A DNA stretch of 64,000 nt from Candidatus Limnocylindrales bacterium. GTDB taxonomy: Bacteria; Desulfobacterota; Binatia; UBA1149; CAITLU01. A program made the position numbers and the translations under genes. Under the pieces are notes generated by a model. That model saw nothing but the letters and a program-made list of their open reading frames with translations, was not told the DNA's origin and ran no database searches. Each line of letters begins with the position of its first letter. The stretch's first letter is position 1. Shown one piece after another: positions 1,767-62,839 of the stretch. Location: assembly GCA_035571835.1 (NCBI GenBank), contig DATNBU010000041.1, positions 11,955 through 75,954 on the forward strand. The letters are read 5' to 3'.

Positions 1767-1771
1767 AGCCA

Positions 1772-4294
1772 ATGAAAACAACATCCGCTCTGTTTACGAT
1801 TCTTCTGTCTGTTCTGGTCCACGCGTCCGCAGGCTACGCCTGCGATCCGGCTGCGGAGCCGAACAGGAGCGACATCGCCAGCGCCCGTGCGCTGATCGCG
1901 GCAAATTGCGACTGCTTCAACTCGACGCGACGCGATTACGCGCGCTGCGCGAAAGAGCAGGCGACTGCGGCATTGTCCGACAGCACGTGCCTTTCGTACG
2001 TGAAGCGGTGTTCCGCCCAGTCGACCTGCGGACGGCCCGGCGCGGTCACGTGCTGCGTGGCGACATCATCCGGGACGAAGTGCAAGATCGCGAGGGACAC
2101 GGCGCGATGCGATGCGCTCGAGGGAACGGTGAGCGACTGCTCGAGCGTCTGCGACGGCTCTCCGCTGCCGGGTAGCGGCCCGAGCTGTTCGGCGAGTGAA
2201 GTCCGCGTGCTGTCGAACCGCGCCGATCTCGTCAGCAGCGGCGATGCGCTGGTCGAGGTCGTGATCCCCGCGGGCATCGATCCATCGACGGTTACGGTCG
2301 ATGTCGACGGCGACGACGTCACCTCGAGTTTCGCGATGCGGCCGAACGGACGCTACGTGGGACTGCTGACCAACCTCGCGCTCGGACCGAACGTCGTGAC
2401 GGCGCGCATGCCCGGCGCCGAGCGCGAGCTCACGATCACCAATCATCCGAGCGGTGGGCCGATCCTTTCCGGTCCCCAGATCCAGCCGTGGATCTGCCAG
2501 GCAGATGCGGTCGACGCGCAGTGCAACCAGCCGGCAAGCTACACGTACCTCTACAAGTCGAGCGATCCGACCAAGCAGGGATTGCAGTCGTACGACCCGG
2601 AGAGCCCTCCGACCGACGTCGCCGATACGACCACCGACCGCGGCGTGACGGTGCCGTTCATCGTCCGTCTCGAGACCGGCTATCAGGACCGCGACCAGTA
2701 CCAGATCGCGACGCTGTTCCAGCCGAACCAGCCGTGGACGCCGTGGGAACCGCAGCCGCAGTGGAATCACAAGCTGCTGATCATGCACGGCGCGTCGTGC
2801 GGCGTGGAACATCAGACCGGATCAGCTCCTGGCGTTACGACTGGTGCGACCGTCGCCGATACCGCCGGCACCGCCGAGTACGCGCTCGGTCTCGGCTACG
2901 CGACGATGTCGACGGCTCTCGACAACAGCGGCCACAACTGCAACGTCGCCGTGCAGGCCGAATCGCTGATCATGGCGAGGGAACGTCTCGTCGAAGAGCT
3001 CGGCGAACTCGACTACACGATCGGTGCCGGCTGCTCGGGCGGCTCGCTCGCTATCCAGTGGATCGGCAATGCGTATCCGGGATTCTACCAGGGCATTCTG
3101 CCGAGCTGCTCGTTCCCCGACGCGTGGGGCACCGCAACGCAGTTCCTCGATTACCACCTGACGCTTGCGTACTTCACCGATCCGTCGAAGTGGGGACTCG
3201 GCATCGCATGGCTGCCGTCGCAGATGGCGGACGTGCAGGGACACATCTCGATCGTCAACTCGGAAGTCAGCGATGCGGCGCAGTTCCACGTGGCGGTTCC
3301 GACCGATCCGTGCGCCGGCGTCAGCGACGCCGAGCGCTACGATCCCGTGACCAATCCGGGCGGCGTACGCTGCGACATCCAGGACGCCGCCATCAGCATT
3401 CTCGGCCCGCGTCCGCCGGCCGACTGGTCTGCGAACGAGCAGGCGCTCGGCCACGGATTCGCCGGGGTTCCGATCGACAACGTCGGCGTGCAGTACGGGC
3501 TGACGGCGCTGCAGCAGTCGCTGATCACGCCGTCGCAGTTCGTCGACCTCAACGAGAAGATCGGCGGGCTCGACGTCGACGTCAATCCGATTCCGCAGCG
3601 CATCGCCGCGACCAGGCCGGCGCTTGCCAACGCGTACCGCAGCGGCCTGATCAACGAGGGCAACAACCTCGACCAGACCGCGATCATCGACTGCCGCGGA
3701 CCCGATCCCGGCGCGTTCCACGATGCGTATCGTGCGTTCGCGATGCGGGCGCGGCTCGATCGCGAGCACGGCACGCACGCCAACCAGCTGATCTGGGAAG
3801 GGCCGGTCGCGCTGTTCGCCGACGCGCAGTGCGTGAAGAACAGCTTCATCGCGATGGACCGGTGGCTGACGGCCGTCAAGGCGGACAGCACCGACAAGCC
3901 GCTCGCACAGAAGATCATCGACGACAAGCCCGCCGACCTTACCGATCGCTGCTACGACGGTGCAGGCGACAAGCTGACCGACGATCTTTGCGGCGAGGCG
4001 GTCGTGACGACGTTCCGCACGCCGCGCATGGTGGCCGGCGACGCGCTGACGACCGACACCAACAAGTGCCAGCTTAAGCCGCTCAGTCGGAGCGACAACT
4101 ACGGGCCGATCCCGTTCATGGATTCGGAATGGGCACGGCTGCAGGCGGTGTTCCCGGACGGCGTCTGCGACTTCTCGAAGCCCGGCGTCGATCAGCAGGG
4201 AACGATTCCGTGGCAGACGTATCAGGACGACGCCGCCGGCGGCGCGGTCATCTATGGTGGAAGACCGCTCGGTGATGCGCCGGTGTCGGAGTAG
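1772..4294 (+). CDS. secreted protein with N-terminal Cys-rich region and alpha/beta-hydrolase-like core (GAGCSGGS motif, tannase/feruloyl-esterase-like)
   Basis: Signal-peptide-like start MKTTSALFTILLSVLVHASAGYA at ATG 1772, six nt after the upstream stop. The upstream in-frame M at 1517 overlaps gene 1 and was rejected. The G-C-S-G-G nucleophile-elbow-like motif is seen in the translation. Confidence 0.55.
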   Translation: MKTTSALFTILLSVLVHASAGYACDPAAEPNRSDIASARALIAANCDCFNSTRRDYARCAKEQATAALSDSTCLSYVKRCSAQSTCGRPGAVTCCVATSSGTKCKIARDTARCDALEGTVSDCSSVCDGSPLPGSGPSCSASEVRVLSNRADLVSSGDALVEVVIPAGIDPSTVTVDVDGDDVTSSFAMRPNGRYVGLLTNLALGPNVVTARMPGAERELTITNHPSGGPILSGPQIQPWICQADAVDAQCNQPASYTYLYKSSDPTKQGLQSYDPESPPTDVADTTTDRGVTVPFIVRLETGYQDRDQYQIATLFQPNQPWTPWEPQPQWNHKLLIMHGASCGVEHQTGSAPGVTTGATVADTAGTAEYALGLGYATMSTALDNSGHNCNVAVQAESLIMARERLVEELGELDYTIGAGCSGGSLAIQWIGNAYPGFYQGILPSCSFPDAWGTATQFLDYHLTLAYFTDPSKWGLGIAWLPSQMADVQGHISIVNSEVSDAAQFHVAVPTDPCAGVSDAERYDPVTNPGGVRCDIQDAAISILGPRPPADWSANEQALGHGFAGVPIDNVGVQYGLTALQQSLITPSQFVDLNEKIGGLDVDVNPIPQRIAATRPALANAYRSGLINEGNNLDQTAIIDCRGPDPGAFHDAYRAFAMRARLDREHGTHANQLIWEGPVALFADAQCVKNSFIAMDRWLTAVKADSTDKPLAQKIIDDKPADLTDRCYDGAGDKLTDDLCGEAVVTTFRTPRMVAGDALTTDTNKCQLKPLSRSDNYGPIPFMDSEWARLQAVFPDGVCDFSKPGVDQQGTIPWQTYQDDAAGGAVIYGGRPLGDAPVSE

Positions 4295-6843: not shown

Positions 6844-8850
6844 ATGCGCGCTGCATGCATCGCAGCCGCGATGAACCTCATCCTGATCACGGGCCTGCCG
6901 GGGAAAGCTGCAGCCGCAGCCGCTTCCAGAAGCGCAACGGCTTCCACGAGCGCAACTTCTGCAAAAGATCCGCAGCATACCGAGGCGCAGCGCCTTCCGG
7001 GTTTCCAGGGGCGTACGCTCGACGGCAAGACGCTGTCGACCGCATCGTTCTCCGGCAAGCGGCTGCTGCTGCTGTGCTTCAATCCCGGCATCGCGCAGTC
7101 GGCGGCGTATGCGCAGGCGCTTGCGAACCTTGCGCCCGAGCGAAGCCGCAACAACTTCGAGATCGCCGGCGTTGCGATGGGGCTCGATCCCGCGGACGCG
7201 CGCGCATTCGCCGCGAAGCTCAAGCTCGACTTCCCGATCTTCGACGACTCGGACGCGACGATCGCGGGCGGCCTCGGGCTGCAGGCTCCGGTGGTCCTGC
7301 TTGGCGTCGACGCCGAAGGTCGCGTCGGCATGGCGATGCTCGGCTTCGAGCACGAGCAGGAGATCCCGGCGGTTGCCGTTGAAGATCACGTCCGCGAGTT
7401 CCTGCGGCTTCCTCGCGCTGACACCGTAACCGGCGGCGCGCTCGATCCGCGGCCGAAAGCGCCGCCGTTCGATGCCGAGCGTCTGAGCGGAGGCGACCGC
7501 TTCCGGCTATCCGATCTGTCGGGCAAGCCGGTGGCGCTGGTGTTTTTCATGCCGACCTGTCCGCACTGCCGCGATGCGCTGCGTTTCTTCAAGGGCGAGC
7601 TTGCGCGCATGCCCGAGAAGAATCGTCCGGTGCTGGTCGGAGTATCGATGGACAGCCGCGCGTACTCGGTCGAATCCACGCTTGCGGAAGAGAAGCTCGA
7701 CTTCTTTCCGGTGCTGCTCGATGCGGACCGCAGGATTGCCTCGGCCTACGGTTCGTTCGCGGGAGTTCCCGACATCGTCCTGATCGATGCGACGGGGCGT
7801 ATCGCGTTCCGGAGCAAAGGATGGAGCGAGGAGCCCGACGCAAGACTGATGCGGATGCGCCTTGCGCGCCTGGCCGGCGCCGAAGTGCCGATGCTGCTCG
7901 ACTCGCACGGATTCAGCGGCAACGACACGTGCGCCATCTGCCATACGATGGAAGCGGCCGCGTGGAAGTACACCGAACACTCGGTCGCATTCGACACGCT
8001 CGTGACGCGCGGAGCAGATCACGATCCGAAATGCGTCGGCTGCCACGTCGTCGGCTTCGGCCAGGCCGGCGGGTACTCCGAAGCCGCGCGCCAGCAGAAC
8101 CTCGAGAACGTCGGATGCGAGACGTGCCACGGCAAGGGCGGCGGACATCTGGACGCGCGATCGAAAACCGCCGGCGGGGCGGCGGCGGTCGACTATCGGT
8201 CCGCCTGCAAAGGCTGTCACGACCCGCAGCATTCGCTCGGCTTCGAGTACGAGAAGTTCCTGCCGAAAGTCTCGCACGCGGCCATCGCCGCGCTCAGCGA
8301 CGCGGAGCGAGAGAAGCTGATCGCCGGACGAAACCGTCCGCGTGACCTGCTGCCGACGGGGTCGGCCGTCGTCGGCTCATCGGCGTGCAAGACCTGCCAC
8401 GAGCATGAATACTTCCTGTGGTCGACGACGGCCCACGCGCGCTCGGTCGAAAGCCTCCGAAAGGAGCGCAAGGAATCGAAGGCCGAGTGTCTTCGCTGTC
8501 ACGTGACGGCCTACGGGCGCCCCGGCGGTTTTCCCGACGGCGAGCCGGTGCGTGCGCACGAGGATCTCGCACGCGTCGGTTGCGAGTCCTGCCACGGCGC
8601 GGGGGCCGAGCACGTGAAGAGCGGCGGCAAGCAGCTTGCCGGCATCGTAACGCTCGGCGACAAGTGCGACTCGTGCGTGATCCTGCAGATCTGCGGCGGG
8701 TGTCACGACGACGCGAACGATCCCGACTTCCGCTTCAACGTGACCCGCAAGATCGATCTCCAGCACCACGGGCGGGCGCCTGCGGTGCCGGAACGATCCG
8801 TTGATACGACGCGCGATACGAGCAGCGCCGCGACCAGCGCCGGCAACTAG
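6844..8850 (+). CDS. fusion protein: two thioredoxin/TlpA-like domains (second with CPHC) plus octaheme c-type cytochrome (8 CxxCH)
   Basis: The translation shows MPTCPHCRDALRFF...VPDIVLIDATGRIAF, a redoxin fold. Eight heme motifs follow: CAICH, CVGCH, CETCH, CKGCH, CKTCH, CLRCH, CESCH, CGGCH. Signal-like start MRAACIAAAMNLILITGLPG at 6844; an alternative start is 6766. Confidence 0.75.
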   Translation: MRAACIAAAMNLILITGLPGKAAAAAASRSATASTSATSAKDPQHTEAQRLPGFQGRTLDGKTLSTASFSGKRLLLLCFNPGIAQSAAYAQALANLAPERSRNNFEIAGVAMGLDPADARAFAAKLKLDFPIFDDSDATIAGGLGLQAPVVLLGVDAEGRVGMAMLGFEHEQEIPAVAVEDHVREFLRLPRADTVTGGALDPRPKAPPFDAERLSGGDRFRLSDLSGKPVALVFFMPTCPHCRDALRFFKGELARMPEKNRPVLVGVSMDSRAYSVESTLAEEKLDFFPVLLDADRRIASAYGSFAGVPDIVLIDATGRIAFRSKGWSEEPDARLMRMRLARLAGAEVPMLLDSHGFSGNDTCAICHTMEAAAWKYTEHSVAFDTLVTRGADHDPKCVGCHVVGFGQAGGYSEAARQQNLENVGCETCHGKGGGHLDARSKTAGGAAAVDYRSACKGCHDPQHSLGFEYEKFLPKVSHAAIAALSDAEREKLIAGRNRPRDLLPTGSAVVGSSACKTCHEHEYFLWSTTAHARSVESLRKERKESKAECLRCHVTAYGRPGGFPDGEPVRAHEDLARVGCESCHGAGAEHVKSGGKQLAGIVTLGDKCDSCVILQICGGCHDDANDPDFRFNVTRKIDLQHHGRAPAVPERSVDTTRDTSSAATSAGN

Positions 8851-9815
8851 GCCGGCGCAGGGCACGACAGCGTCAGCGCACCGCCGACGGCTTTCTTCAG
8901 GATCGCAAGCGCATCGGATGCTGCAACCGAGCCGTTGGCGTTGACGTCGCACACCGTCACGTCACAGACTTTGGCCGAGACCGCGGACTGCAGCGCGAAC
9001 AGCGCGTCGGTTGCGGTCACCGTGCCGGAATCGTTCGGATCTCCGCACGCGAGCGCATCGCATCCTGCGTCGCAGTATTCGCCCGGAGCCCAGGTCGTAT
9101 CGCCGTCGTCGCAGGTCTCTCCCGCAGACGTGATGCCGTCGCCGCATGCGACAGCCACTGCGCAGTCGGCGTCGTCCTGGTCGTAGACACCGTCGCCGTC
9201 GTTGTCGAGACCGAACAGACCGAACCTGTTCTCGTTGCCGGGTGATGCGGCTGCGTTGCACGGATCGACGGGCTTGCTCGCATGCGCGGAGTCGGGCGTG
9301 AAGTAATACGGAGGCTTTTCGTCTTCGCCGGCCGGCGCGCCGTCGCTGTGGCAGTCGGCGCAGTCGCTGATGCCGGCGTTCGCATGATGCAGCCGCAGGC
9401 CGGCGCCCATTCCGCAGTTGGCCGGATCGATCGTCGTGCTGTTGCCGGTGACGCACTCGCCGGTCGCATCGGCCGCGCGCCCGTGACAGCCGAGGCACGA
9501 GACCGGGCTGTATCCGGATATGCCGGCCGAAAGGCCGATGTAGACCGGGCTTCGCGGAGTTCCCGCCGGCGGCTGGTGGCAGACGTTGCACGTACCGCTG
9601 CCCATGAACGCGCTGTGGCCGGTCATGAGATTCGTGCCCCAGCTCGTTCCGTCCGAATCGGAGACGTACGTGCCGGAGTTGAACTCGCCGTGGCAGCCGG
9701 CGCAGCCCGACCACGTCGCATAGGCATGGGCGGACGGAACCCACGTCGCGAACGCCAGATGAGCGACCACTACGGCCGCGCCGACACGAAGGCAGTTCTC
9801 TAAATTCGTTTTCAT
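8847..9815 (-). CDS. secreted tetraheme c-type cytochrome with C-terminal two-repeat dockerin-like (EF-hand-type Ca-binding) module
   Basis: Signal peptide MKTNLENCLRVGAAVVVAHLAFA with RBS GGGAGAG. Four heme motifs: CAGCH, CNVCH, CLGCH, CADCH. C-terminal loops DPNDSGTVTATDALFALQSAV and DVNANGSVAASDALAILKKAVG match the 12-residue dockerin Ca loop at positions 1, 3, 5 and 12, each followed by an L-rich helix. Confidence 0.75.
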   Translation of the reverse strand: MKTNLENCLRVGAAVVVAHLAFATWVPSAHAYATWSGCAGCHGEFNSGTYVSDSDGTSWGTNLMTGHSAFMGSGTCNVCHQPPAGTPRSPVYIGLSAGISGYSPVSCLGCHGRAADATGECVTGNSTTIDPANCGMGAGLRLHHANAGISDCADCHSDGAPAGEDEKPPYYFTPDSAHASKPVDPCNAAASPGNENRFGLFGLDNDGDGVYDQDDADCAVAVACGDGITSAGETCDDGDTTWAPGEYCDAGCDALACGDPNDSGTVTATDALFALQSAVSAKVCDVTVCDVNANGSVAASDALAILKKAVGGALTLSCPAPA

Positions 9816-10012
9816 TTCCGCTCTCCCTTGCTTCCTGTTCGCCGTCGCATCTGCATCAGACATCGCCTGCGGGAGCCCGATCCCGGGCCGCCGACCTTGC
9901 GTATGCACGGTCCATTCCACGTTGCCGACCGGCTGCTCTCGGACGACATGCTTCTTGCAGGAAAGGAGTTGGCAGATACGGCCCTTCGAAGGCCGTGAAA
10001 GGAGGGCCTGTC

Positions 10013-12487
10013 ATGAAAGCTGTCGCAGAGCGGAGTCCGGGAGCGGTTTTCTCAGCAGTTTTTGTCTTTCTGCTCGCATGGATTGCGGTGCCGCAGGCTT
10101 TTGCGGCGAAGGATGACTGTTCCCAGCCTGTCAGCGGCGGCGACGGCCCCGTGACGAGCGACTGCCTTCATATCCTGTCGACCGCCGTCGGTTCCCAGAT
10201 CTGCGAGACTTCCTGCGTGTGCGATGTCAACGGCAGTAATTCGATCACGTCGATTGACGCATTGATGTGCCTGCGGGCCGCCGTCGACCTCGAGGTCGAC
10301 ATGAATTGTCCATGCGGTGACACGACGACCACGACCATCACCACGACGACGACCACGACCATCGAAGTAACGACGACCACGACCACCACGACGACCACCA
10401 CGCTGCCGGTGGCCGGCGTGATGAACGAGGCGTGCCCGGTCTGCCACGGCGATGGGCGGGTCATCGACGTCGCGTCGTATCACCCCGGCCTGCAGACGAT
10501 TCCGGATATCAACGCCAGCATCGACAGTGTCGCGATCGTCGTGGACGACGTGGCCCACACCGCCAGGCTGACCGTCAACTTCACCGTGACCGATCCCGAT
10601 GGCGATCCGATCCCGGACCTCGGCGCGCCTTCGCCGACGCAGGCCACGCGTTTCGCGTACCTGCGTTTCGCGCTGAGCGAGCTCGAGCCGGCCGAAGACC
10701 TGAGCGGTGATCCGGACAGCTGGGTCAGCTACACGACCGGCGACCGGACGCCCGCCAACCTGACCGACCACGGCGACGGCACCTACACGTACCTGCTCGC
10801 AACCAATCTCTACACCCTCTACATCCCGTCGCTGCGGCACCGGCTGCTGATGACTGTGTCGGGCGCAATCGTAGCGCAGTCGAAGAACGTGACGTACGAC
10901 TTCGTGCCCGAGCAGCTGCCGGGTCCGTTCGTGTTCGACACCAGCCGCGACATCGTGACGACGACCGCGTGCAACAGCTGCCACGGCCGCCTCGGCAGCA
11001 CTCTTGGCGATGCGAGCTTCCACGGCGGCAGCCGCTACACGACCGAGGCCTGCGCGACGTGCCACACGACGTCGCTGGTCGGCGGCAGCGCGGAGTTCGC
11101 GCCGATGGTGCACAAGATCCACGCGGCCCAGAACATCGAAGGGCTCGCGGATTTCTCCGAGGTCACGTACCCGCAGGACGTGCGCAACTGTGCCACGTGC
11201 CACGCCGGCACCGACGGCTCCAACTGGTACACGCGGCCGTCGCAGACGGCATGCGGCTCGTGCCACGCCGATGTCGATTTCGTAACCGGCGAGAATCACG
11301 ACGGCGGTCCGCAGACCAATGCGGCGTGCGTCGACTGTCACTCCGAGGACGCCATCAAGGAAGTGCACGTCACCGACATTTCTACGCCGCATAACCCCGA
11401 CGTTCCGGAAGGCGCGGTGAGCTTCGAGTACGTGCTCGAAGAAGTGACCGTGAACGACAGCAGGCAGGCGGTCGTACGCTTCCACATCAACGCCGACGGC
11501 GAGCCTGTCGATCTCAGCACCATCCCGCCTGCCGGATTCAGCGGCGGTCCGGGCTTCCTCGTCGCCTATGCGCTGCCGCAGGACGGCGTCGAAGTGCCGG
11601 TCGATTACAACAACCTCGGCCGCAGCGCAGGACAGCCGGCGACCGTCACGCTCGCAAGCCTGTCCGGCAAGCTGACCGGTACTCCCGAGAGCTACACCGC
11701 GGTGCTCGACGCCGCTCCGTTCCCGTCCGGCGCGACGATGCGCGCGGTCGCGCTGCAGGGCTACTTCACGCAGCTGATGGGCAATCCCGCCAGCACGACG
11801 GACGATCTCGCGCGCCACACGCCGTCGGTCGTCCAGCCGGTCACCGGCGATCCGGTGCGACGTCAGGTGGTCGAAGTGGCCAAGTGCCTCAACTGCCACG
11901 AGAGCCTCGAGCTGCACGGCGGCAATCGCGTCAACAACGTCCAGGTGTGCGTCACGTGCCACGACCCGAACCTGAGCAGCAGCGGTCGCACCGTGAACCC
12001 GGCCGACGTGACGCAGGAACAGAAGGATGCGCTCGCAGCGGCCGGCCACGACCCGAACGATCCGCTCAGCTGGCCGGAGACATCGATGCAGCTGAAGAAC
12101 CTCGTGCACGGGCTGCACTCGTCCGGAATGCGCAACTTCGATTACGACTTCGTCCGCAATCGAAACGGCGCGTCGTACTTCAACTGGAGCGAAGTGACGT
12201 TCCCGGGCATCCTCAGCAACTGCGAAACCTGTCATTTGCCGGGGACGTACGGCGTCGACCTGCCGGACGGAGTACTGGTGAGCACGAACGTGACCACGAG
12301 CGGCCCGAATGCGACGAGGGCGAGCATCCTCGCGGCTCGTGACAGCGTGCCGAACGATACCGACGAGATCCTGAGCCCGACGGCCGGTCCGTGTTCGATG
12401 TGCCATGACAGCGTGCCGGCAGCGGCCCACATGGAACAGAACGGCGGCGTGATCGGCAAGACGCGCCTCGCTGCTCTGGGCAACTGA
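10013..12487 (+). CDS. secreted decaheme c-type cytochrome with N-terminal dockerin-like module and poly-Thr linker
   Basis: RBS AAGGAGG lies 6 nt upstream of ATG 10013. The protein starts with a signal peptide. A dockerin-like loop DVNGSNSITSIDALMCLRAAV follows, then the linker TTTTITTTTTTTIEVTTTTTTTTTTT. Ten CxxCH motifs are present: CPVCH, CNSCH, CATCH twice, CGSCH, CVDCH, CLNCH, CVTCH, CETCH, CSMCH. Confidence 0.8.
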   Translation: MKAVAERSPGAVFSAVFVFLLAWIAVPQAFAAKDDCSQPVSGGDGPVTSDCLHILSTAVGSQICETSCVCDVNGSNSITSIDALMCLRAAVDLEVDMNCPCGDTTTTTITTTTTTTIEVTTTTTTTTTTTLPVAGVMNEACPVCHGDGRVIDVASYHPGLQTIPDINASIDSVAIVVDDVAHTARLTVNFTVTDPDGDPIPDLGAPSPTQATRFAYLRFALSELEPAEDLSGDPDSWVSYTTGDRTPANLTDHGDGTYTYLLATNLYTLYIPSLRHRLLMTVSGAIVAQSKNVTYDFVPEQLPGPFVFDTSRDIVTTTACNSCHGRLGSTLGDASFHGGSRYTTEACATCHTTSLVGGSAEFAPMVHKIHAAQNIEGLADFSEVTYPQDVRNCATCHAGTDGSNWYTRPSQTACGSCHADVDFVTGENHDGGPQTNAACVDCHSEDAIKEVHVTDISTPHNPDVPEGAVSFEYVLEEVTVNDSRQAVVRFHINADGEPVDLSTIPPAGFSGGPGFLVAYALPQDGVEVPVDYNNLGRSAGQPATVTLASLSGKLTGTPESYTAVLDAAPFPSGATMRAVALQGYFTQLMGNPASTTDDLARHTPSVVQPVTGDPVRRQVVEVAKCLNCHESLELHGGNRVNNVQVCVTCHDPNLSSSGRTVNPADVTQEQKDALAAAGHDPNDPLSWPETSMQLKNLVHGLHSSGMRNFDYDFVRNRNGASYFNWSEVTFPGILSNCETCHLPGTYGVDLPDGVLVSTNVTTSGPNATRASILAARDSVPNDTDEILSPTAGPCSMCHDSVPAAAHMEQNGGVIGKTRLAALGN

Positions 12488-12492
12488 ACGAA

Positions 12493-12537
12493 CGCAGGGA
12501 ACCTCGCAGCCATGAAGCGGCTGCGAGGTTCCCTGCG
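12493..12537 (+). terminator. strong stem-loop (19-bp perfect stem CGCAGGGAACCTCGCAGCC / GGCTGCGAGGTTCCCTGCG, 5-nt loop) 6 nt after the decaheme stop
   Basis: Perfect inverted repeat read in the sequence. No canonical U-tract follows (GTCTTTCACC), so it may act as a rho-dependent or processing signal rather than an intrinsic terminator. Confidence 0.55.
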
Positions 12538-12895
12538 TCGATCCGCCGCGTCTTTCACCGTCGAAAGCGCTTCACCTGCAACTTTCTGCTTTGCGCGACG
12601 GTCGCGCATCAAAAAAGCATTGCCGATTTCGCGACAATAGAGACATCTCCCCGAGTTTGCTGAGGTCGCAACGCGTCAGCGCCTCGCATTGCGAAGCGTT
12701 TCGACCAACCATTCCGTTCCCAGTTTCAAAAAATTCCGGTGCGCAGGATCGCCCGGCGGGCGTGAAGCGCTTGTTCTACCGGCGCCACGGCTGTACCCGT
12801 CCTCCTCAAGCGCACGGCGGGGGAGGGGAACGGTGCGTATCTGCGGACTCATTGGTTCGCAGATCCCGCCTGTCGCTTCACCTAGGGAGGTTCCG

Positions 12896-14920
12896 ATGCG
12901 CTCGAGACTGACGCTCTGCGTGCTATTTGCCGCCACGCTCTGGTATCCGCTGCAGGCTGCGGCTACCTGCGGAGACGGCATACTCGAACCGCTCAACGGT
13001 GAGCAGTGCGACGTACCCGGCGGCACCTTCTGCTGCATCGGCTGCCAGTTTCGAGGGTCGGAGACGCTGTGTCGCGCTGCGACCGGCGCCTGCGACGTCG
13101 AAGAATACTGCGCAGGCAACAGCACGGCGTGCCCGGCCAACAGCGTCAAGCCGAGCAGCACGATCTGTCGCGAGTCTCCGGGATCGGTCGCATCGCAGGT
13201 CGAATCCACACGCGGGCCGAGTGATCCGGACACCACCGGAACGGTCTCGGTCGGCGCGTCGTCGAGCTTCCAGTTCAAAATCGGAACCGGCGGCCTGCTG
13301 CGGACAGTTACCGCGGTGCCGTCGAGCTCGCTGCAGACGTTCGTCGACGACATCAATGCGCTGAAGAACAGCGCACCGCTTTACCAGAGGGTATCGGCCA
13401 ACCTGTTCAATGCCGGGAGCAACTGCCAGGCCGATGCGCCGGGCAACAACTCCTGTCTGTCGAACTCGGATTGCTCGGCCAACGTCGACTGCGCCACCAC
13501 GTACAAGGTCCTTCTGCTTGCCGAGACTCGCGGTGCGGACTCGATCATCGTCCAGACCGACCAGACGCAGCTCAAGTTCGCGACCCGCATCGCCGGCGCC
13601 GATGACCCCTGCAACGCGACCGAACGGTGCAACGGAACCAGCGCGAGCTGTCCCGCCGATTCGTTCCAGAATTCGTCGTTCGTCTGCCGTCCGTCCGCCG
13701 GCTCGTGCGACGTCCAGGAGAACTGTCCCGGCAACGCTTCGCTCCTCTGTCCGGCCGACACGGTCCTGGCGTCCACTACCGTGTGCCGATCGTCCGCCGG
13801 TGTCTGCGATCCGGCGGAGCTCTGCACGGGCAGTAACGGCGTTTGTCCGACCGATTCGAAGAGCACGGCGATCTGCCGGGCTTCGGGCGGCGGCTGTGAT
13901 CCGGCCGAGGTATGCGACGGCATCGCCGATGCGTGTCCTGCAACTGCCCTCAGCAGCAACGGCACCGTGTGCCGTGCACCTGCGGGAGGCTGCGACGCCG
14001 CGGAAACCTGCGACGGCGCAAGCGTCGTGTGCCCGGCCGACGTCAACCTGCCCGCGAGCACGCTTTGCCGCGCCGATGTCGGCCAGTGCGACGTTGCCGA
14101 CTTCTGCACCGGCACCACCAGGGATTGCCCGGCCGACAACTTCGAGCCCGACGGCACGACCTGCGACGACGCCGATGTCTGCACCGTCAACGACCAATGC
14201 ATCGGCGGCGTCTGCGTCGTCGATCCCCAGCATTGCGGCGACGGCGTGCTGCAGCTGACCTGCACCGAGGAGTGCGACGACGGCAACGTCGACGACGTCG
14301 ACGGATGCTCGTCGACGTGTGAGGCCGAGCCCGGGCTCGGCTGCCCGTACTTCCCGCTGTCCGGATGCCGCCAGTCGACGGTGCCGGGCAAGTCGCGAGT
14401 CGACATTCGCGACGAAGAGAAAATCAGCGGACTCAAGTTCCAGTGGCGCTGGAAAAAGGGAGCGGCGACTACCGAAGCTGACTTCGGCGATCCGCTCACC
14501 GATGCGCCGGCCGGAACCAGCTACACGCTGTGTCTGTACGATGCGGTCGGTCTGCTCGCGCAGGCCACCGCGCCTGCCGGCGGCGAATGCGGCGTCAAGG
14601 AACCGGGACCGTGCTGGACCGGGCGCCCGTCGCAGGGCTTCAACTATCTCGATTCCGACCAGTCGATCGAGCCGGACGGTGTCAAAAGCGTCGATCTCGT
14701 CGCGGGTCCGGATGGCAGGGCGTACATCGGGCTCAAGGCAGAAGGCGGACTGTTTCCGTTCCCGTCCAACGGCGGGTTCGGAGGCATCGGCGACCTGACC
14801 GGAATTGCATCGCCGCTCGTCGTGCAGCTCCAGAACACCAGCGGGCTCTGCTTCGAGGCAACCTACAGCGCGCCGTTCAAGCGGCAGCTTCCCACTCGCT
14901 TCCAGGCAAGGGCGAACTGA
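12896..14920 (+). CDS. secreted cysteine-rich repeat protein (Myxococcus-type Cys-rich / disintegrin-like repeats)
   Basis: RBS AGGGAGG precedes ATG 12896, followed by signal peptide MRSRLTLCVLFAATLWYPLQAAA. At least 10 tandem protein repeats of the form CRxxxGxCDxxExCxGxxxxCPAD. Confidence 0.7.
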   Translation: MRSRLTLCVLFAATLWYPLQAAATCGDGILEPLNGEQCDVPGGTFCCIGCQFRGSETLCRAATGACDVEEYCAGNSTACPANSVKPSSTICRESPGSVASQVESTRGPSDPDTTGTVSVGASSSFQFKIGTGGLLRTVTAVPSSSLQTFVDDINALKNSAPLYQRVSANLFNAGSNCQADAPGNNSCLSNSDCSANVDCATTYKVLLLAETRGADSIIVQTDQTQLKFATRIAGADDPCNATERCNGTSASCPADSFQNSSFVCRPSAGSCDVQENCPGNASLLCPADTVLASTTVCRSSAGVCDPAELCTGSNGVCPTDSKSTAICRASGGGCDPAEVCDGIADACPATALSSNGTVCRAPAGGCDAAETCDGASVVCPADVNLPASTLCRADVGQCDVADFCTGTTRDCPADNFEPDGTTCDDADVCTVNDQCIGGVCVVDPQHCGDGVLQLTCTEECDDGNVDDVDGCSSTCEAEPGLGCPYFPLSGCRQSTVPGKSRVDIRDEEKISGLKFQWRWKKGAATTEADFGDPLTDAPAGTSYTLCLYDAVGLLAQATAPAGGECGVKEPGPCWTGRPSQGFNYLDSDQSIEPDGVKSVDLVAGPDGRAYIGLKAEGGLFPFPSNGGFGGIGDLTGIASPLVVQLQNTSGLCFEATYSAPFKRQLPTRFQARAN

Positions 14921-15022
14921 CCGATGCGGCGCGCGATGGAAGCAGCCGCGAGTGCGGCGACGAATCGGATGGGGAACTTCACCGGAAACTCTGCCGGCAA
15001 TTCTTCAATGAGGAACTCTGCG

Positions 15023-16105
15023 ATGCGCAAGACGAGAACGATTCTTCAGCGATGGACGGTCGGCATGGTCGTCATGGCCATGGCCGTTGCCGGGCCTGCG
15101 GCCGCAGCGCCGGTCGATGATGCCAGGGCCCTGATCAACGCGATCGTCGCCACGGGCGATACCGAGCGTGCGTGGCAACTGACGCAGGTCGTGGATTCGA
15201 TGTCGGAGGCCGAGCTCGAGACGTTCGCGAATTCCGGCATCCGCGAGCTGACGGGCCTGATGAACCAGCAACGCGAAGCAATCGAAGCGGCGCGCGACAT
15301 CGGGTTCCGGCTGCCGGCCGAGCCCCCGTCGCCGGTCGTCAGAAACCACAACGACGATTTCCCGCTGTTCACCGACTACACGCCCGACTCGACTAGCTGT
15401 CCGAACTCGCCGGACCAGACCTCGATCGGAACCATCGTCGCGATCCGGTCGACGCTGGTCGGTGCGCAGGCCGCCTACAAGATCGCCAAGGCGCTCTACG
15501 ACGACACCAATCCGGTCTGTCACCAGCTCGTCGTTGCAATCGGCGTCGGCAGCAACCCGCAGACAGCCGTGTGCATCGGCCTCGGCATTGCGGAGACGGT
15601 CGTGCACGTGGCCTTCGATGTCACGGCGAAAGCTCTCGAGCTGATCGATTTCTGCGACGACGAAGTCGACTACGCGAAGATCCGCGCGACCTTCCACGAC
15701 CTCGAGTTCATTCACAATCAGCTGACCACGCACGATACGGACGAGAAGCTTCAGGTCACCACGCACGACGACGAGGAGCAGGCCTTGCTCGACGACCTGC
15801 TCGCGCGCCTCGCACGCATCGAGGGCAAGCTCGATCTTCTCATGAAGAGCCAGCTCGAGATTGCGATGGACCGCCGCGGCGGACGCTCACGTCCGAGTGT
15901 GTTCTACGAGGACCGGCTCGACGAGCTGTGCGGCTATGCGCAGGAAGCCGTCGACGATCTTCCCGACGTCTACCTGGTCGCCGACCAGTGCCAGGGGCTG
16001 ATCAACGAAGGACTTTCTCTCAAACTGACGGACCCCAAGCTGGCAGCGGACACGTGTGTCGCGGCCTTCGTACGAGCCACCGCCGGCTCGTCGACGCTGC
16101 AGTAG
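15023..16105 (+). CDS. secreted hypothetical protein, paralog A (conserved C-terminus RPSVFYEDRLDELC...DDLP...TDPK.AAD.C)
   Basis: Signal peptide MRKTRTILQRWTVGMVVMAMAVAGPAAAAP with RBS GAGGA. The paralog downstream shares the acidic HD/E-rich helical segment and the C-terminal block. Confidence 0.65.
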   Translation: MRKTRTILQRWTVGMVVMAMAVAGPAAAAPVDDARALINAIVATGDTERAWQLTQVVDSMSEAELETFANSGIRELTGLMNQQREAIEAARDIGFRLPAEPPSPVVRNHNDDFPLFTDYTPDSTSCPNSPDQTSIGTIVAIRSTLVGAQAAYKIAKALYDDTNPVCHQLVVAIGVGSNPQTAVCIGLGIAETVVHVAFDVTAKALELIDFCDDEVDYAKIRATFHDLEFIHNQLTTHDTDEKLQVTTHDDEEQALLDDLLARLARIEGKLDLLMKSQLEIAMDRRGGRSRPSVFYEDRLDELCGYAQEAVDDLPDVYLVADQCQGLINEGLSLKLTDPKLAADTCVAAFVRATAGSSTLQ

Positions 16106-16171
16106 CGTGAACGACATGATGCAGATGATGTCTCCGCGAACGATGGGTTCGAATACCGGTGATGTTCCGCA

Positions 16172-16207
16172 GAGGAATCCCAAGAGGAATCCCACGAGGA
16201 ATCCAAT
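16172..16207 (+). repeat. 3 x 12-nt tandem repeat GAGGAATCCCAA/CAC/AAT ending in the start codon of paralog B
   Basis: Read directly: gaggaatcccaa gaggaatcccac gaggaatccaATG. Each unit contains an SD-like GAGGA. Confidence 0.7.
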
Positions 16208-17300
16208 GATCCGTAAAGTCCTGCGACGAACGACAGGGATGTTTCTTCTCACGCTTGCCGTATTGGCCGTAGCGCTGCCGCAAGCGGCTGTTGCGTCCGA
16301 CCGCGACGAGACACTGGAGCTGGCCGATACCATCCGCGACCTCGGATATTCCGGCGAAGCCGCGCAGATCGAGCAGCTGGTGGCGGGAATGTCCGATTCC
16401 GAGCTCCAGCTTCTCGGGGATGCCGGCTTCTTCCAGATCTCTTCCAAGCTGAAAGCGTACCAGGTGGCGAAAGAGCGTGCGGACGCGCTCGAGTTCATCT
16501 CCGTCGAGCCCCAGGGCGCAAGCCAGCGTGCGATCCTGTCCGACTACGATCTGTCGACCTTCCCCGCGGCGGTCTATCCGCCGCAGGATTCGACCTGCGT
16601 CAACGCGGTCGGGACGGTCAGCACCGCGGCAGTCAAGGTCGGGCTCAAGGCTACCGTTTTCACGCTGAGGGAAGCGCTGACGGCCGCCGACGGTGCGCAG
16701 CGGGCGGCGATGGCCGGCTGCAACATCATCGTCATCGCGATCGGCATCGGCGGCAACGCCGCGTCGGCCTGCGTCGTCTCAGCCATCGTTCTCAGCGTGG
16801 CCGACGCTGCCCTGTCGGTCGGCGAAATCTTCATCGACAACCTGATCTTCTGCGACGAACAGGTGCATTTTGCGGAATCCGAAGCCTCCGCTGTTCGCGC
16901 GGAGTACCTGAGCCACCAGCTCGAGCTTCACGATCTCGAGCTCGGCGAGCAGATCGCCACGCACGACGTGGAAGTCCAGGCCAAGGTGCAGCAGGCGATC
17001 GCGCGCGCGGCCAGCATCGAAGGCAAGATCGATCTCGGCCTGAAGACCCAGCTCGAAGTCGCGATGGATCGCAAGACCGTCACGCGTCCGAGCATCTTCT
17101 ACGAGGATCGGCTCGATGAGCTCTGCGATCTCGCGCAGGAGGCGATCGACGATCTGCCGGCCACCTACATCCTGGCAACGAGGGCGCAGACCCTCGTCAA
17201 CGACGGAATGGCGTTCAAGATCACCGATCCGAAGCGCGCGGCCGACGAGTGCATTCGTGGATTCAGCATGGCAACCACGAAGTCGACCGAACACAACTAG
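16206..17300 (+). CDS. secreted hypothetical protein, paralog B of 15023..16105
   Basis: Signal peptide MIRKVLRRTTGMFLLTLAVLAVALPQAAVA. C-terminal block RPSIFYEDRLDELCDLAQEAIDDLPATYILA...TDPKRAADECI is shared with paralog A. The upstream part of ORF 16056 has low GC3 and is judged non-coding. Confidence 0.65.
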   Translation: MIRKVLRRTTGMFLLTLAVLAVALPQAAVASDRDETLELADTIRDLGYSGEAAQIEQLVAGMSDSELQLLGDAGFFQISSKLKAYQVAKERADALEFISVEPQGASQRAILSDYDLSTFPAAVYPPQDSTCVNAVGTVSTAAVKVGLKATVFTLREALTAADGAQRAAMAGCNIIVIAIGIGGNAASACVVSAIVLSVADAALSVGEIFIDNLIFCDEQVHFAESEASAVRAEYLSHQLELHDLELGEQIATHDVEVQAKVQQAIARAASIEGKIDLGLKTQLEVAMDRKTVTRPSIFYEDRLDELCDLAQEAIDDLPATYILATRAQTLVNDGMAFKITDPKRAADECIRGFSMATTKSTEHN

Positions 17301-17331: not shown

Positions 17332-18447
17332 GTGACGGGAGTGGATATCTCGAAGGCTGCCGTGCTGTCGCGAAGCGAAGCCGCGGCTTCGAGCGCGTCG
17401 TGGCGGAGCGCGGTTGCCGCCGGGCGCGGCTTCATCGCTTCGGGACTCTACGACAGCGTCTTCTTCCTGCTGGCACCGGTGATCGCGCTCGCGATCGTTG
17501 CCGTGGTCGCGGTGCTGCCGCCGGCGAAGGGGATTCCCGCTGTGTTCCGCGAGCCGGCCGGGCCGGCGATCTTCGTGATGCTGGTCCTTTCGCAGGCGCA
17601 CGCGGTCGCGGTGTTCTTTCGAAGCCACGGCAATCGCGCGATCTTCGTGCGTCACCGCTTCGCATTCGTGGTCGTGCCGGTCCTCCTTTTTGCCGGGCTC
17701 ATGACTTCGAACTGGGTGATGGCCGGTGCACTGGTGCTGGCTCCGTTCTGGGCCGTCTACCACCTCGGCATGCAGAGCTTCGGGCTCGGCCGCATGTACG
17801 ACGTGCGCTGGGGCAACTCGCCGGAGACGGGCCGCACGCTGGACTACTGGCTGCAGCAGCTCTTCAACCTCGCGCCGTTCCTTGCCGGTTGGAGCCTTCT
17901 GCCGCACCTGCAGTCGCTGCGGATCTTCGAACGCGTCGGCTGGCATGCGCCGGCGGCGTGGCTCGATGCGCATCGTTCGATCGAGGGTGCGCTCGCCGGC
18001 GTGTTCCTCGTGGCCGGACCGGTCTTCCTCGCGTACTACGTTTATTCGTACCGCAGGTTCATGCAGCAGGGCTACAGGCTCTGCCCGCAGAAGGTCGTGC
18101 TGCTGGCGACGACGGGCGTCGTCTCGGTGGTTTCCTGGGGATTCCTCACGTCGTGGAAGGCGGTGTTCGTGATGAACCTTTTCCACAGCGTGCAGTATTT
18201 CGCGCTGGTCTGGTGGGCCGAGCGCAAGAACCTCGGCCGCGTGAGCCGCCTGCAGCGCGTCTCGTTCGGCACGCCGGTCCTGCTCGTCGCGTTCCTCGTG
18301 ATCACGCTGTCGCTCGGAACTTTTCTCCAGGCGTACGGTCGCGACTACACGGTGATGCGCTGGACCGCGTCGCTCGCGCTCGTGATCTCGCTGATGCACT
18401 ACTGGTACGATGGATTCGTGTGGTCGGTGCGGCGCCGCGAGGTCTGA
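17332..18447 (+). CDS. polytopic integral membrane protein, hypothetical (GTG start)
   Basis: Multiple hydrophobic helices and high GC3. The overlapping alternative-frame ORF 17400.. was rejected over this interval. Confidence 0.55.
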   Translation: MTGVDISKAAVLSRSEAAASSASWRSAVAAGRGFIASGLYDSVFFLLAPVIALAIVAVVAVLPPAKGIPAVFREPAGPAIFVMLVLSQAHAVAVFFRSHGNRAIFVRHRFAFVVVPVLLFAGLMTSNWVMAGALVLAPFWAVYHLGMQSFGLGRMYDVRWGNSPETGRTLDYWLQQLFNLAPFLAGWSLLPHLQSLRIFERVGWHAPAAWLDAHRSIEGALAGVFLVAGPVFLAYYVYSYRRFMQQGYRLCPQKVVLLATTGVVSVVSWGFLTSWKAVFVMNLFHSVQYFALVWWAERKNLGRVSRLQRVSFGTPVLLVAFLVITLSLGTFLQAYGRDYTVMRWTASLALVISLMHYWYDGFVWSVRRREV

Positions 18448-18458
18448 CGCCGGGTCCC

Positions 18459-61810: not shown

Positions 61811-62176
61811 CGAGACGCTGCCACTCGAACCCGCAAACCCTCGCGACATCGCGCAGGTTTCGGGCCGCTCCTTGCGGGGAGGCGGCGCGGCTCATCCGCA
61901 GGGAGAGAAAGGGTCGAACCCGCAGAGAATTTATTCGCGGCGGAGGTGTTACCGATGTGTCCGGTATGAAATGACACCTATGTGACCGGGATAGACTTTA
62001 GAGGATTGGCTCAAGCGTATGTCGGCAAGATTCGCTAGAGCCCCTCGATTACCTACTACGCCATGGTAAGAGCGAGCTCGGCCGACGCGCAGCATCATAG
62101 GAGACTCGTGGACAAGGGTTAAGTTGAGTTGAAAGGTCTGATCGCTGGGGCGAGGCTCTTATTCAGAGGAGAGGGA

Positions 62177-62659
62177 ATGGCTACCTACTTAACAATCGCG
62201 ATCGGTCTGATCTGGGTCGCGAATCTGGTTTGTTTGCTCATGATCTACTCAGCGCGCAGTAGGATGAAGTCCGTACTCAGTCTTGATCAATTCTCGCTGC
62301 CTTCAAATCAGACTCTTGCCATATTGCAGAAGCACAGCCGAGCGAGCGAACATCTCCGAGGCTACATCGTAAACAACGCGCCGTGCCTAATGTTTCCTCA
62401 TGGTGCGAGTATGTTTTCTCTCCTCATCACACTCGCCGGCTGGGTCTGCGTTGTTCTTACAATTCTTGCATTGATGAATCGAGAATGGACGCACGTGGCT
62501 GTGTTGGTCGCGACATGGCTCGCGTGCAACTTCTGTGGGTCAAGATTTAATCAGAATCTAATGTACGAAGAAGCGCTGAAAGCGATTCACATAGAGGACC
62601 GAGGGGTTTTCAAGACCTGGCTTGATCAATTCCATCGCGACTACAACGCCGCGAGATAG
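62177..62659 (+). CDS. small membrane protein, hypothetical (low-GC island)
   Basis: RBS GGAGAGGG precedes ATG 62177 (the ORF track starts at TTG 62129). Three or four TM helices. GC content is lower than the rest of the window. Confidence 0.5.
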   Translation: MATYLTIAIGLIWVANLVCLLMIYSARSRMKSVLSLDQFSLPSNQTLAILQKHSRASEHLRGYIVNNAPCLMFPHGASMFSLLITLAGWVCVVLTILALMNREWTHVAVLVATWLACNFCGSRFNQNLMYEEALKAIHIEDRGVFKTWLDQFHRDYNAAR

Positions 62660-62839
62660 AATGCGGGCCGCTAGGCGATATGACGGACGCGGAGAGATGC
62701 GTAGTTCAGCCGGCGGCCGCGACGTCTAGGGTCGTTCCGCTAGTATACAGCCCACCCGGTCGATGGCGCACCGATAGCAGATCTTAACTAGTCTCAGGCT
62801 TCTCCTGCGAGAGAAGTCTTTGCAGAGGGGCGAAGATCC

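Follow-up and report, generated by a model that had tools for sequence, protein, structure and literature searches.

Of the terminal wires that microbes use in extracellular electron transfer, the MtrC/OmcA proteins are understood best, and they also serve as parts in bioelectronics. In the Shewanella proteins MtrC, MtrF, OmcA and UndA (PDB 4LM8, 6QYC, 6R2Q, 3PMQ, 4LMH, 3UCP), two beta-barrels alternate with two multiheme domains, and the protein described here has the same fold. A CX8-15C disulfide in domain III is conserved across all Shewanella clades, where it gates flavin binding (PMC4486940). Dockerin-type modules, which also bear on this locus, are present in ANME archaea, which are thought to perform extracellular electron transfer, and a role in anchoring functional proteins at the cell surface has been proposed for them (PMC9012536). 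Within the literature covered by a full-text search, no earlier description of a permuted or dockerin-fused MtrC was found.

A decaheme cytochrome of the OmcA/MtrC family

We have analysed a gene for a ten-heme cytochrome lying in a 64-kb stretch of DNA (the window). The gene and its ribosome-binding sequence have these coordinates:

10000..10005, + strand: Shine-Dalgarno sequence AGGAGG, 7 nt 5' of the ATG at 10013 (sequence reading)
10013..12487, + strand: whole decaheme gene of the OmcA/MtrC family, very probably in circularly permuted form, 824 aa (TIGR03507, Pfam, CxxCH count)

A separate gene call, made on the near-identical contig L001, chose the same ATG, and the encoded protein is identical to NCBI HXC53063.1, where it is already named as an OmcA/MtrC family decaheme. 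The permuted chain order was missed by the earlier, sequence-only reading of this DNA. Taxon labels differ, the NCBI source being labelled Candidatus Limnocylindrales and the closest homologues Binatia. Scanning positions 8700-13000 for promoters and terminators gave no signal exceeding shuffle expectation.

CxxCH occurs exactly ten times in the protein, at aa 141, 320, 347, 393, 414, 439, 625, 646, 737 and 794. Shuffling its own sequence 2000 times produced a mean of 0.03 such motifs and a maximum of 1, which confirmed that the count of ten reported in the sequence-only reading is not inflated by chance. That reading also described the motifs as evenly spaced, and in this it was mistaken: they are grouped 1 + 5 + 4.

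The proposed OmcA/MtrC type was borne out by HMM comparison and by structure. The protein scored 360 bits against TIGR03507 (cutoff 209.3), with aa 181-815 corresponding to profile positions 3-642 of 672, and matched the Pfam family Mtrc-MtrF_II-IV_dom with an E value of 1.7e-46; its best PDB sequence match was MtrF (E 1.8e-33). An AlphaFold model (pLDDT 86 overall, above 90 in the core) was submitted to Foldseek, and the best matches were MtrC, OmcA, UndA and MtrF, with E values from 4e-27 to 6e-22 and target-normalised TM scores of 0.52-0.69 (for MtrC 6QYC, E 4e-27 and TM 0.67). AlphaFold and Foldseek together revealed the four-domain architecture of beta-barrel I, multiheme II, beta-barrel III and multiheme IV:

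10505..10912, + strand: domain I, beta-barrel, aa ~165-300 (AlphaFold strands with pLDDT >90; aligns to domain I of MtrF/MtrC)
10946..11368, + strand: domain II, pentaheme, aa 312-452, CxxCH at 320/347/393/414/439, family hemes 1-5 (PF22113)
11405..11848, + strand: domain III, beta-barrel, aa ~465-612, cysteine-free (sequence, AlphaFold)
11855..12484, + strand: domain IV, aa 615-824, CxxCH at 625/646/737/794, family hemes 6-9 only (TIGR03507, MtrF alignment)

We regard it as practically certain that the protein is a genuine member of the OmcA/MtrC family with the MtrC/OmcA four-domain fold. The Cys and His columns of the region covered by PF22113 (aa 312-452) are invariant. Outside the CxxCH motifs, the clade has exactly ten invariant histidines (157, 337, 367, 370, 429, 452, 635, 699, 702 and 806), and in an alignment of 104 sequences all the distal His candidates except His157 were invariant or near-invariant. 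As judged from sequence, the ten CxxCH histidines and the ten further invariant ones fit ten bis-His hemes. There are no cysteines between heme 5 and heme 6 of this protein, nor in 85 of the 108 homologues counted; domain III, being free of cysteines, lacks the CX8-15C disulfide found in Shewanella.

A probable heme-10 segment at the N-terminus

The single CxxCH that precedes domain I belongs to the following segment:

10421..10492, + strand: heme-10 segment, very probably relocated, aa 137-160, MNEACPVCHGDGRVIDVASYHPGL, comprising the first CxxCH and the invariant His157 (MtrF alignment, HMM)

The resulting heme order is 1+5+4, as compared with the canonical 5+5, in which heme 10 lies near the C-terminus. 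Residues 137-158 aligned to the C-terminal heme-10 segment of MtrF; the match to TIGR03507 stopped at position 642 of the 672 in the profile, where the chain itself stops 30 aa past heme 9. The N-terminal CxxCH could in principle be a newly acquired "heme 0" on or near domain I, the family heme 10 having been lost independently, in which case the geometry of the heme chain would be altered, for instance by a new entry point near heme 2. The CxxCHG motif is indeed short, and AlphaFold confidence at aa 141-160 is only ~60 pLDDT. An HMM built from 70 canonical C-terminal heme-10 segments, however, gave 27.1 bits at aa 137-160 and at most 6.6 bits at the other nine motifs of this protein, a result that speaks against a new heme, as does the fact that the similarity extends past CxxCH along the pattern xExCxxCHGxGRxxDVxxxHPGL. 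Also contrary to a new heme, His157 is invariant in the clade, and so is the matching His of the canonical tails. The canonical homologue P0031 (55% identical) carries the same heme-10 motif, VETCKLCHGPGRLADVATIHPGL, at its C-terminus.

The distribution of the segment among homologues pointed in the same direction. Across the permuted proteins, the heme-10 HMM matched the N-terminal heme in 37/37 cases, with 12-38 bits, and no other motif exceeded 10.6 bits. No protein with an N-terminal copy also has a C-terminal one, and the heme total remains ten: gain at one end and loss at the other are paired without exception, in 37/37 permuted and 70/70 canonical proteins, a coincidence that argues against independent gain and loss. 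Only one candidate for an 11-heme protein was detected (P0317), its extra C-terminal CxxCHG lying at the extreme end of the sequence. The permuted form accounts for 37 of the 108 full-length homologues and for 18 of the 102 classifiable cluster representatives, and it seems that the permutation arose more than once.

Internal symmetry of the protein was also examined. In the permuted register its two halves can be aligned over their full length, with heme 10 opposite heme 5 and hemes 1, 2 and 3 opposite hemes 6, 7 and 8, and Smith-Waterman alignment of the two halves scored 103 against 39 +/- 6 for shuffles (z = 10). The link from heme 10 to domain I mirrors that from heme 5 to domain III, which again disfavours a "heme 0"; we consider that alternative very unlikely. 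Circular permutation, with the canonical C-terminal heme-10 segment moved to the N-terminus directly before domain I, is by our assessment highly probable. The 1+5+4 order is a difference in topology and does not count against OmcA/MtrC homology. The claim that the hemes are arranged as in OmcA/MtrC accordingly holds for the family and fails for the arrangement, the heme-10 segment being N-terminal and both the lipobox and the domain-III disulfide being absent. Because the model reaches only ~60 pLDDT at aa 141-160, it is by inference that we pack the N-terminal heme segment on domain IV.

N-terminal module and poly-threonine linker

Upstream of the heme-10 segment, three further elements were delimited:

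10013..10105, + strand: probable Sec-type signal peptide, aa 1-31, predicted cleavage between AFA and AK, without lipobox (from sequence reading)
10112..10321, + strand: dockerin-like module, 70 aa, aa 34-103, 8 conserved Cys, two repeat segments (Dockerin_1, PDB profile)
10322..10402, + strand: poly-Thr linker TTTTTITTTTTTTIEVTTTTTTTTTTT, aa 104-130, 23/27 Thr (sequence; imperfect tandem repeat)

The motif DVNGSNSITSIDALMCLRAAV, previously noted as a dockerin-like loop, is found at aa 71-91, within the 8-Cys module, and the dockerin-like nature of the N-terminus was upheld by profile searches. When isolated, the module matched Pfam Dockerin_1 (PF00404) with 29.2 bits and an E value of 1e-6 (cutoff 22.9); as part of the whole protein it gave only 13.3 bits against the same cutoff, and only 6/20 homologous modules matched Dockerin_1 at E <= 1. 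The best six matches of a module profile to PDB sequences were cellulosomal dockerins, at marginal E values of 0.009-0.43. The second repeat shows the calcium-loop pattern DxNxxGxxxxxD, with D38, N40 and D49 kept and with D38 and D49 invariant in the module alignment. The first repeat is degenerate, having an invariant Pro at its start and retaining D17 alone; it has lost the calcium-loop consensus. Two helices (aa 48-59 and 80-90) were predicted by AlphaFold with pLDDT 57-72, and the eight conserved Cys probably form four disulfides.

Among the 88 ten-heme homologues without the module, 57 have a lipobox motif at the module's position (regular expression), and 39 of those 57 bear collagen-like GXY repeats. 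By the same kind of expression, a lipobox was detected in one of the 20 module-bearing homologues. In the protein studied here the signal ends in AFA, followed by AKDDC, so that Cys36 is preceded by AKDD and there is no lipobox. The module also terminates other, fragmentary proteins, in two of which it follows a Thr-rich stretch; the module profile search returned mostly contig-end fragments.

An imperfect 24-nt/6-nt tandem repeat of ACG/ACC codes for the linker, in agreement with the repetitive DNA reported earlier, and the linker is enclosed in a predicted disordered tether spanning aa 102-140 (AlphaFold pLDDT <50). Whether its length varies among related strains had been raised as a question, and it does differ by 24 nt between near-identical assemblies: a 24-nt (8-aa) indel in the repeat is the sole gap in 22,475 aligned nt between the window and contig L001. 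Both sequences are metagenome assemblies and the indel is exactly one unit of a short, imperfect repeat, as would be expected if the difference were a short-read assembly artefact over the repeat and not real strain variation. Nevertheless, the 824-aa form was recovered from four sources (NCBI, JGI/IMG, Logan and NCBI nr), the 816-aa form coming from ENA, and both the length and the presence of the linker differ among homologues as well; we consider an artefact rather unlikely.

The neighbouring tetraheme and the genomic context

A second cytochrome gene is divergently transcribed next to the decaheme gene:

8847..9815, - strand: tetraheme cytochrome, 322 aa, four CxxCH (CxxCH count)
~8850-9053, - strand: C-terminal dockerin-like module of the tetraheme (Dockerin_1 23.1 bits, cutoff 22.9)

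The tetraheme contains an acidic Cys-rich repeat, and an HMM of the module from which its own sequence had been excluded matched it with 41.2 bits and an E value of 4e-12. This result supported the earlier statement that the module is oriented oppositely in the two proteins, N-terminal in the decaheme and C-terminal in the tetraheme.

No gene for a cohesin, a porin or an MtrA-like protein was found in the Pfam lists for the whole 64-kb window, and tblastn with the MtrA-like and porin-like proteins of L002 as queries gave zero matches to MtrA or MtrB in it. An adjacent MtrA-type periplasmic decaheme and MtrB-type porin are thus absent beside this gene, within the window. In 5 of 6 distinct genomic contexts, dockerin-type homologues are orphan genes, and no operon partners conserved across them were found. 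One dockerin-type homologue (P0012, 62% identical) lies in a cluster composed of mtrC, an MtrA-like heptaheme gene and a gene for a 746-aa putative porin; the heptaheme is MtrA/DmsE-like (E 2e-42, under the cutoff), and the putative porin matches no family.

These observations bear on what the module does. As neither a cohesin partner nor MtrAB was detected in the window, surface docking is a presumed role, and we propose only tentatively, as one reasonable possibility, that the module works as a docking tether. It could instead be a non-cohesin device, such as a stalk stabilised by calcium and disulfides, a module for adhesion to carbohydrate or mineral, or an export recognition tag, and the cytochrome would then be freely released or be a soluble periplasmic electron carrier. 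The absence of a cohesin from the 64-kb window, the orphan status of most dockerin-type homologues, which lack MtrAB, and the degenerate first calcium loop would all suit such a device, and non-cellulosomal dockerins are generally of unknown role (PMC9012536). On the other hand, the module is found at either terminus behind flexible linkers, like cellulosomal dockerins, and this favours an autonomous binding module over a terminal sorting signal. Further points against a non-cohesin device are that the module replaces the lipid anchor in an otherwise lipoprotein family, that two adjacent cytochromes have it, and that one homologue adjoins an MtrA-like cytochrome and a putative porin. We judge this alternative to be on the unlikely side.

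Proposed mode of action and significance

We favour with moderate confidence an overall explanation in which a permuted MtrC/OmcA-type decaheme, with a dockerin-like tether in place of the lipid anchor, serves extracellular electron transfer. The protein would be a secreted electron-transfer protein with ten hemes, all bis-His, and in the permuted register it would consist of exactly two tandem units, each made up of heme segment, beta-barrel and four hemes. Its N-terminal segment is envisaged to fold back onto domain IV, thereby completing the staggered-cross heme network. The Sec signal and the dockerin-like module, rich in disulfides, would take the place of lipid anchor and spacer together with a poly-Thr tether, flexible and ~40 residues long, which would attach to the cytochrome right beside heme 10. 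The module would most likely dock the cytochrome non-covalently to a partner in the cell envelope or matrix, where the decaheme, held by its tether, could function in extracellular electron transfer as a terminal reductase or oxidase; the tetraheme with the same module may dock beside it.

A more far-reaching version, which we think quite unlikely, is that of a "cytochrome-some", in which decaheme and tetraheme would be cargo plugged through their disulfide-rich dockerin modules into a putative cell-surface scaffold; the resulting extracellular electron conduit would need neither lipid anchors nor the MtrAB porin. The permutation would in that case position the tether precisely at heme 10, the terminal heme, and docking would thereby also wire the heme chain to the partner. 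Should the organism truly belong to Candidatus Limnocylindrales (Chloroflexota), as NCBI labels it, the system could even work in a lineage that has no classical outer membrane.

A natural and widespread circular permutant would indicate that re-threading at the boundary between repeats is compatible with the staggered-cross heme scaffold, and it would point to evolution of the family through a register shift of its two-unit repeat. It would also offer protein engineers ready-made alternative termini for fusions, beside heme 10. The exchange of the lipid anchor for a dockerin-like module suggests a second way to mount these wires on cells. Annotation is affected too: unless the permutation is taken into account, a count that heeds heme order would mark permuted proteins as odd or truncated.

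Comparison with known systems

The module resembles type I dockerins (PF00404; 1OHZ_B, 4UYP_B) in its size of ~70 aa, in its two repeat segments, each with a predicted helix after it, in the DxNxxGxxxxxD pattern matched by its second loop, in being joined to a functional domain by a Thr-rich linker, and in occurring at either end of a protein. It differs from them in having eight conserved Cys and a first loop without calcium ligands, the similarity being marginal, and in that its cargo is a cytochrome and not a glycoside hydrolase, with no cohesin found in the window. In ANME archaea, the passages of PMC9012536 consulted place dockerins mainly on substrate-binding and S-layer proteins and mention no fusion of a dockerin with an MtrC-family decaheme; the present protein comes from a bacterial lineage.

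Like the Shewanella proteins MtrC, MtrF, OmcA and UndA, the decaheme has ten CxxCH motifs and ten conserved distal histidines; identity to them is only 16-21% over the structural alignment. It differs from these four in the position of the heme-10 segment, N-terminal here and C-terminal there, in lacking the domain-III CX8-15C disulfide and in having no mtrAB beside it in this window; unlike MtrC and OmcA of Shewanella, it has no lipobox. An example of the canonical environmental homologues is P0031, from a MAG labelled Candidatus Binatia, whose core is 55% identical and whose domain I starts in residue-for-residue alignment with that of the decaheme. In P0031, however, the heme-10 segment stays at the C-terminus, and in the N-terminus as called, a collagen-like stretch is followed immediately by domain I.

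An OmcA/MtrC family decaheme cytochrome

The gene at 10013-12487 (plus strand) is the only long high-GC3 frame in its region besides the opposite-strand shadow ORFs 10052-12430 and 10168-10464, which were not counted as genes. AGGAGG lies 7 nt ahead of its ATG, and the same start was chosen when genes were called independently on a near-identical contig. The 824-aa product contains ten CxxCH motifs (aa 141, 320, 347, 393, 414, 439, 625, 646, 737, and 794) versus a mean of 0.03 when its own composition was shuffled 2000 times. The ORF, the module motif, the Thr linker, and the ten motifs described in the sequence-only reading were all recovered; the motifs, which it had considered evenly spaced, are actually grouped as 1 + 5 + 4. 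Ahead of the hemes, the protein contains:

N-terminus: Sec-type signal peptide, predicted to be cleaved between AFA and AK, without a lipobox
Upstream of the hemes: 70-aa module with eight cysteines, containing DVNGSNSITSIDALMCLRAAV
Upstream of the hemes: linker TTTTTITTTTTTTIEVTTTTTTTTTTT, whose coding DNA is an imperfect ACG/ACC repeat (periods of 6 nt and 24 nt)

Assignment to the OmcA/MtrC family, anticipated in the same reading, is secure: NCBIfam TIGR03507 (OmcA/MtrC family decaheme) gave 360 bits, above its curated cutoff of 209.3, the Pfam MtrC/MtrF domain II/IV model gave E 1.7e-46, and MtrF (1.8e-33) and MtrC were the top matches among PDB sequences. The assignment is not new; the identical NCBI protein HXC53063.1 is already named 'OmcA/MtrC family decaheme c-type cytochrome'. 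An AlphaFold2 model (104 sequences) had a mean pLDDT of 86, rising above 90 in the core (about residue 160 onwards), and its strong Foldseek matches were exclusively MtrC, OmcA, UndA, and MtrF (E 4e-27 to 6e-22; target-normalised TM 0.52-0.69). The clade has exactly ten invariant histidines outside the motifs (157, 337, 367, 370, 429, 452, 635, 699, 702, and 806), and nine of them, all except His157, are invariant or nearly so in the 104-sequence alignment. Ten is the number required for ten bis-His hemes and, judged by conservation, these residues constitute the full candidate ligand set. The family comprises 2661 clusters at 50% identity (E <= 1e-3), 1412 of them at E <= 1e-10.

Circular permutation of the chain

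The sequence-only reading overlooked the order of the chain. The TIGR03507 match ends at profile position 642 of 672, the chain stops 30 residues past the last heme motif, and phmmer aligned residues 137-158 (MNEACPVCHGDGRVIDVASYHP) with the C-terminal heme-10 segment of MtrF (GTETCAFCHGQGTVADVLKVHP). Among the 120 homologues listed, 70 proteins had the canonical order (5 + 5 hemes, the last motif about 20 residues before the end), and 37, including the query, a permuted one (1 + 5 + 4 hemes, ending about 30 residues past heme 9) with the heme-10 segment at the N-terminus. An HMM made from the 70 canonical tails matched the N-terminal heme in 37/37 permuted proteins with scores of 12-38 bits, the query reaching 27.1, and every other heme motif scored 10.6 bits or less. 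N- and C-terminal copies were mutually exclusive, with the total constant at ten hemes; this exclusivity was also found in 49 classified loci from species-representative genomes, and a second independent sample (50%-identity representatives) contained 84 canonical and 18 permuted proteins. The canonical relative P0031 (55% identical) starts ...TTNSISIAVDDVAKTATLTVNF and ends ...NGGFLDLTRSDAVASNAPVETCKLCHGPGRLADVATIHPGLVATQ; the mature core of the query starts ...MNEACPVCHGDGRVIDVASYHPGLQTIPDINASIDSVAIVVDDVAHTARLTVNF and the protein ends ...NGGVIGKTRLAALGN. At the level of sequence, these comparisons establish the permuted chain order of the query.

The two halves of the query align end to end in permuted register (Smith-Waterman score 103 versus 39 +/- 6 in shuffles, z = 10), so that heme 10 falls on heme 5, domain I on domain III, and hemes 1, 2, and 3 on hemes 6, 7, and 8. 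In this alignment the permutation sits on a repeat boundary. Since the halves align in this way, the link from heme 10 to domain I is the pseudo-symmetric mate of that from heme 5 to domain III, and the rearrangement is thus structurally conservative. AlphaFold, which includes no hemes, gave aa 141-160 only about 60 pLDDT; the N-terminal heme segment would pack on, or complete, domain IV. In a rough neighbour-joining tree, the query fell in one large permuted clade with the canonical P0031 nested within it, and the permuted P0052-54, P0047, P0099, and P0107 were scattered among canonical proteins; this tree, only indicative, suggests that both forms have interconverted repeatedly.

One permuted protein of the representative library, P0317, carries an eleventh CxxCH (…CCSCHGPN) at its extreme C-terminus, behind a poly-Gly stretch. 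This protein may represent a relic or an intermediate with N- and C-terminal heme-10-type motifs, or a truncated gene call.

Dockerin-like module and poly-Thr linker

The Dockerin_1 model was sub-threshold on the whole protein (13.3 bits) and reached 29.2 bits on the isolated 70-aa module (cutoff 22.9; E 1e-6; two stretches). When a profile of 20 homologous modules was compared with PDB sequences, the top six matches were cellulosomal dockerins, at marginal E values of 0.009-0.43. Eight cysteines are conserved across the module; repeat 2 retains the DxNxxGxxxxxD loop, with D38 and D49 invariant, and repeat 1 has lost it and begins with an invariant Pro. An HMM of the module made without the neighbour's sequence matched the C-terminal 66 residues of the adjacent, divergently transcribed tetraheme (8847-9815, minus strand) with 41 bits (E 4e-12). 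This match upholds the opposite module orientation previously noticed (N-terminal in the query, C-terminal in the tetraheme), and indicates a dockerin-like module common to both cytochromes. Profile searches also located the module in other, fragmentary proteins, terminal in several and placed behind a Thr-rich stretch in two.

The repetitive DNA of the linker pointed out earlier corresponds to the ACG/ACC repeat, and the question of poly-Thr length variation found an answer in L001 (ENA ERZ27256655), the near-identical contig: over 22,475 aligned nt there were one mismatch and one gap, the latter being one poly-Thr repeat unit of 24 nt (8 aa), both sequences being metagenome assemblies. Poly-Thr runs occur in only some homologues of the query's clade. 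O-glycosylation of the linker is speculative.

Genomic context

The following genes and features accompany the decaheme gene:

39-4294, plus: RoxA-like cytochrome c protein, then an 840-aa tannase-like protein (DUF6351), ahead of the cytochrome cluster
6871-8850, plus: two AhpC/TlpA-type thioredoxin-like domains (one with CPHC) fused to a C-terminal octaheme region resembling cytochrome c554 (eight CxxCH)
8847-9815, minus: tetraheme
Nearby: disintegrin-like Cys-rich protein
14924-16105 and 16056-17300, plus: two paralogous proteins, no assigned family
17332-18447, plus: 371-aa multi-pass membrane protein without family
18498-20117, plus: HTTM-domain membrane protein

No MtrA, MtrB, or cohesin gene was found within the 64-kb window. 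The product of 6871-8850 partially matched NCBIfam 'UshA-like (seleno)protein' at 185 bits, short of the 275-bit cutoff, and represents an unusual fusion of a thiol-disulfide oxidoreductase to an octaheme cytochrome. Each of the tandem paralogues (35% identical to one another, E 1e-62) has a signal-like N-terminus and no significant Pfam or NCBIfam match. The pair at 17332-20117 sits directly downstream of Cys-rich secreted proteins; the HTTM domain has a vitamin-K-dependent gamma-carboxylase-like fold. GC content at 62001-64000 is 0.55 versus a window average of about 0.65, and this segment could be foreign or non-coding.

Dockerin-type homologues were orphan genes in five of six distinct contexts. 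In the remaining one, that of P0012 (62% identical, 880-kb contig; locus L002, 12540-15665), the gene after the decaheme encodes a 287-aa heptaheme relative of MtrA/DmsE (E 2e-42, below cutoff) and GSU2203, and the next one a signal-bearing 746-aa protein that ends in FEFEY and has no family match. The latter is a putative porin resembling an outer-membrane barrel, and the three may form an unclassified porin-cytochrome conduit.

The NCBI MAG that contains the identical protein is labelled Candidatus Limnocylindrales (Chloroflexota), and the MAGs with the closest decaheme homologues carry the labels Candidatus Binatia or Deltaproteobacteria. These labels conflict, and which one holds decides if an outer membrane is expected for the source organism. 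Cys-rich repeats of the 'myxo_disulf' type are characteristic of MAGs with Binatia, Myxococcota, or Deltaproteobacteria labels.

Proposed surface anchoring and comparison with known systems

A lipobox motif, called by a regular-expression test, occupies the position of the module in 57 of the 88 ten-heme homologues without it, followed in 39 of these by collagen-like GXY repeats and in others by poly-Gly; most loci from species-representative genomes had the same pattern. Members of the dockerin-type clade carry a Sec signal, and all but one lack a lipobox motif; the module thus occupies the position of the lipid anchor, and poly-Thr that of the spacer. After export, the query protein would be tethered through its module to a cell-surface partner, where it could donate electrons to external substrates or accept them, perhaps alongside the tetraheme. 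The searchable literature yielded no account of an MtrC that is permuted or fused to a dockerin, and such an arrangement is relevant for extracellular electron transfer research and protein engineering.

Many MtrC/OmcA-family proteins, canonical and permuted, consist of a lipobox, long collagen-like GXY repeats (Pfam Collagen matches), and the cytochrome (e.g., loci L008, L011, L009, and L023; proteins P0020, P0025-27, and P0043-45). The repeats suggest that surface decahemes have a triple-helical stalk and may trimerise.

In MtrC of Shewanella, heme 5 touches MtrA and heme 10 is exposed some 90 A above the membrane (PMC7198977), an arrangement that accounts for a long N-terminal spacer; the tether of the permuted form leaves directly beside heme 10. 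The query lacks the domain-III disulfide of the Shewanella proteins and, unlike most module-less homologues, a lipobox. The fragments in which a Thr-rich stretch precedes the module (e.g., P0140) have the same order as the classic enzyme-linker-dockerin layout.
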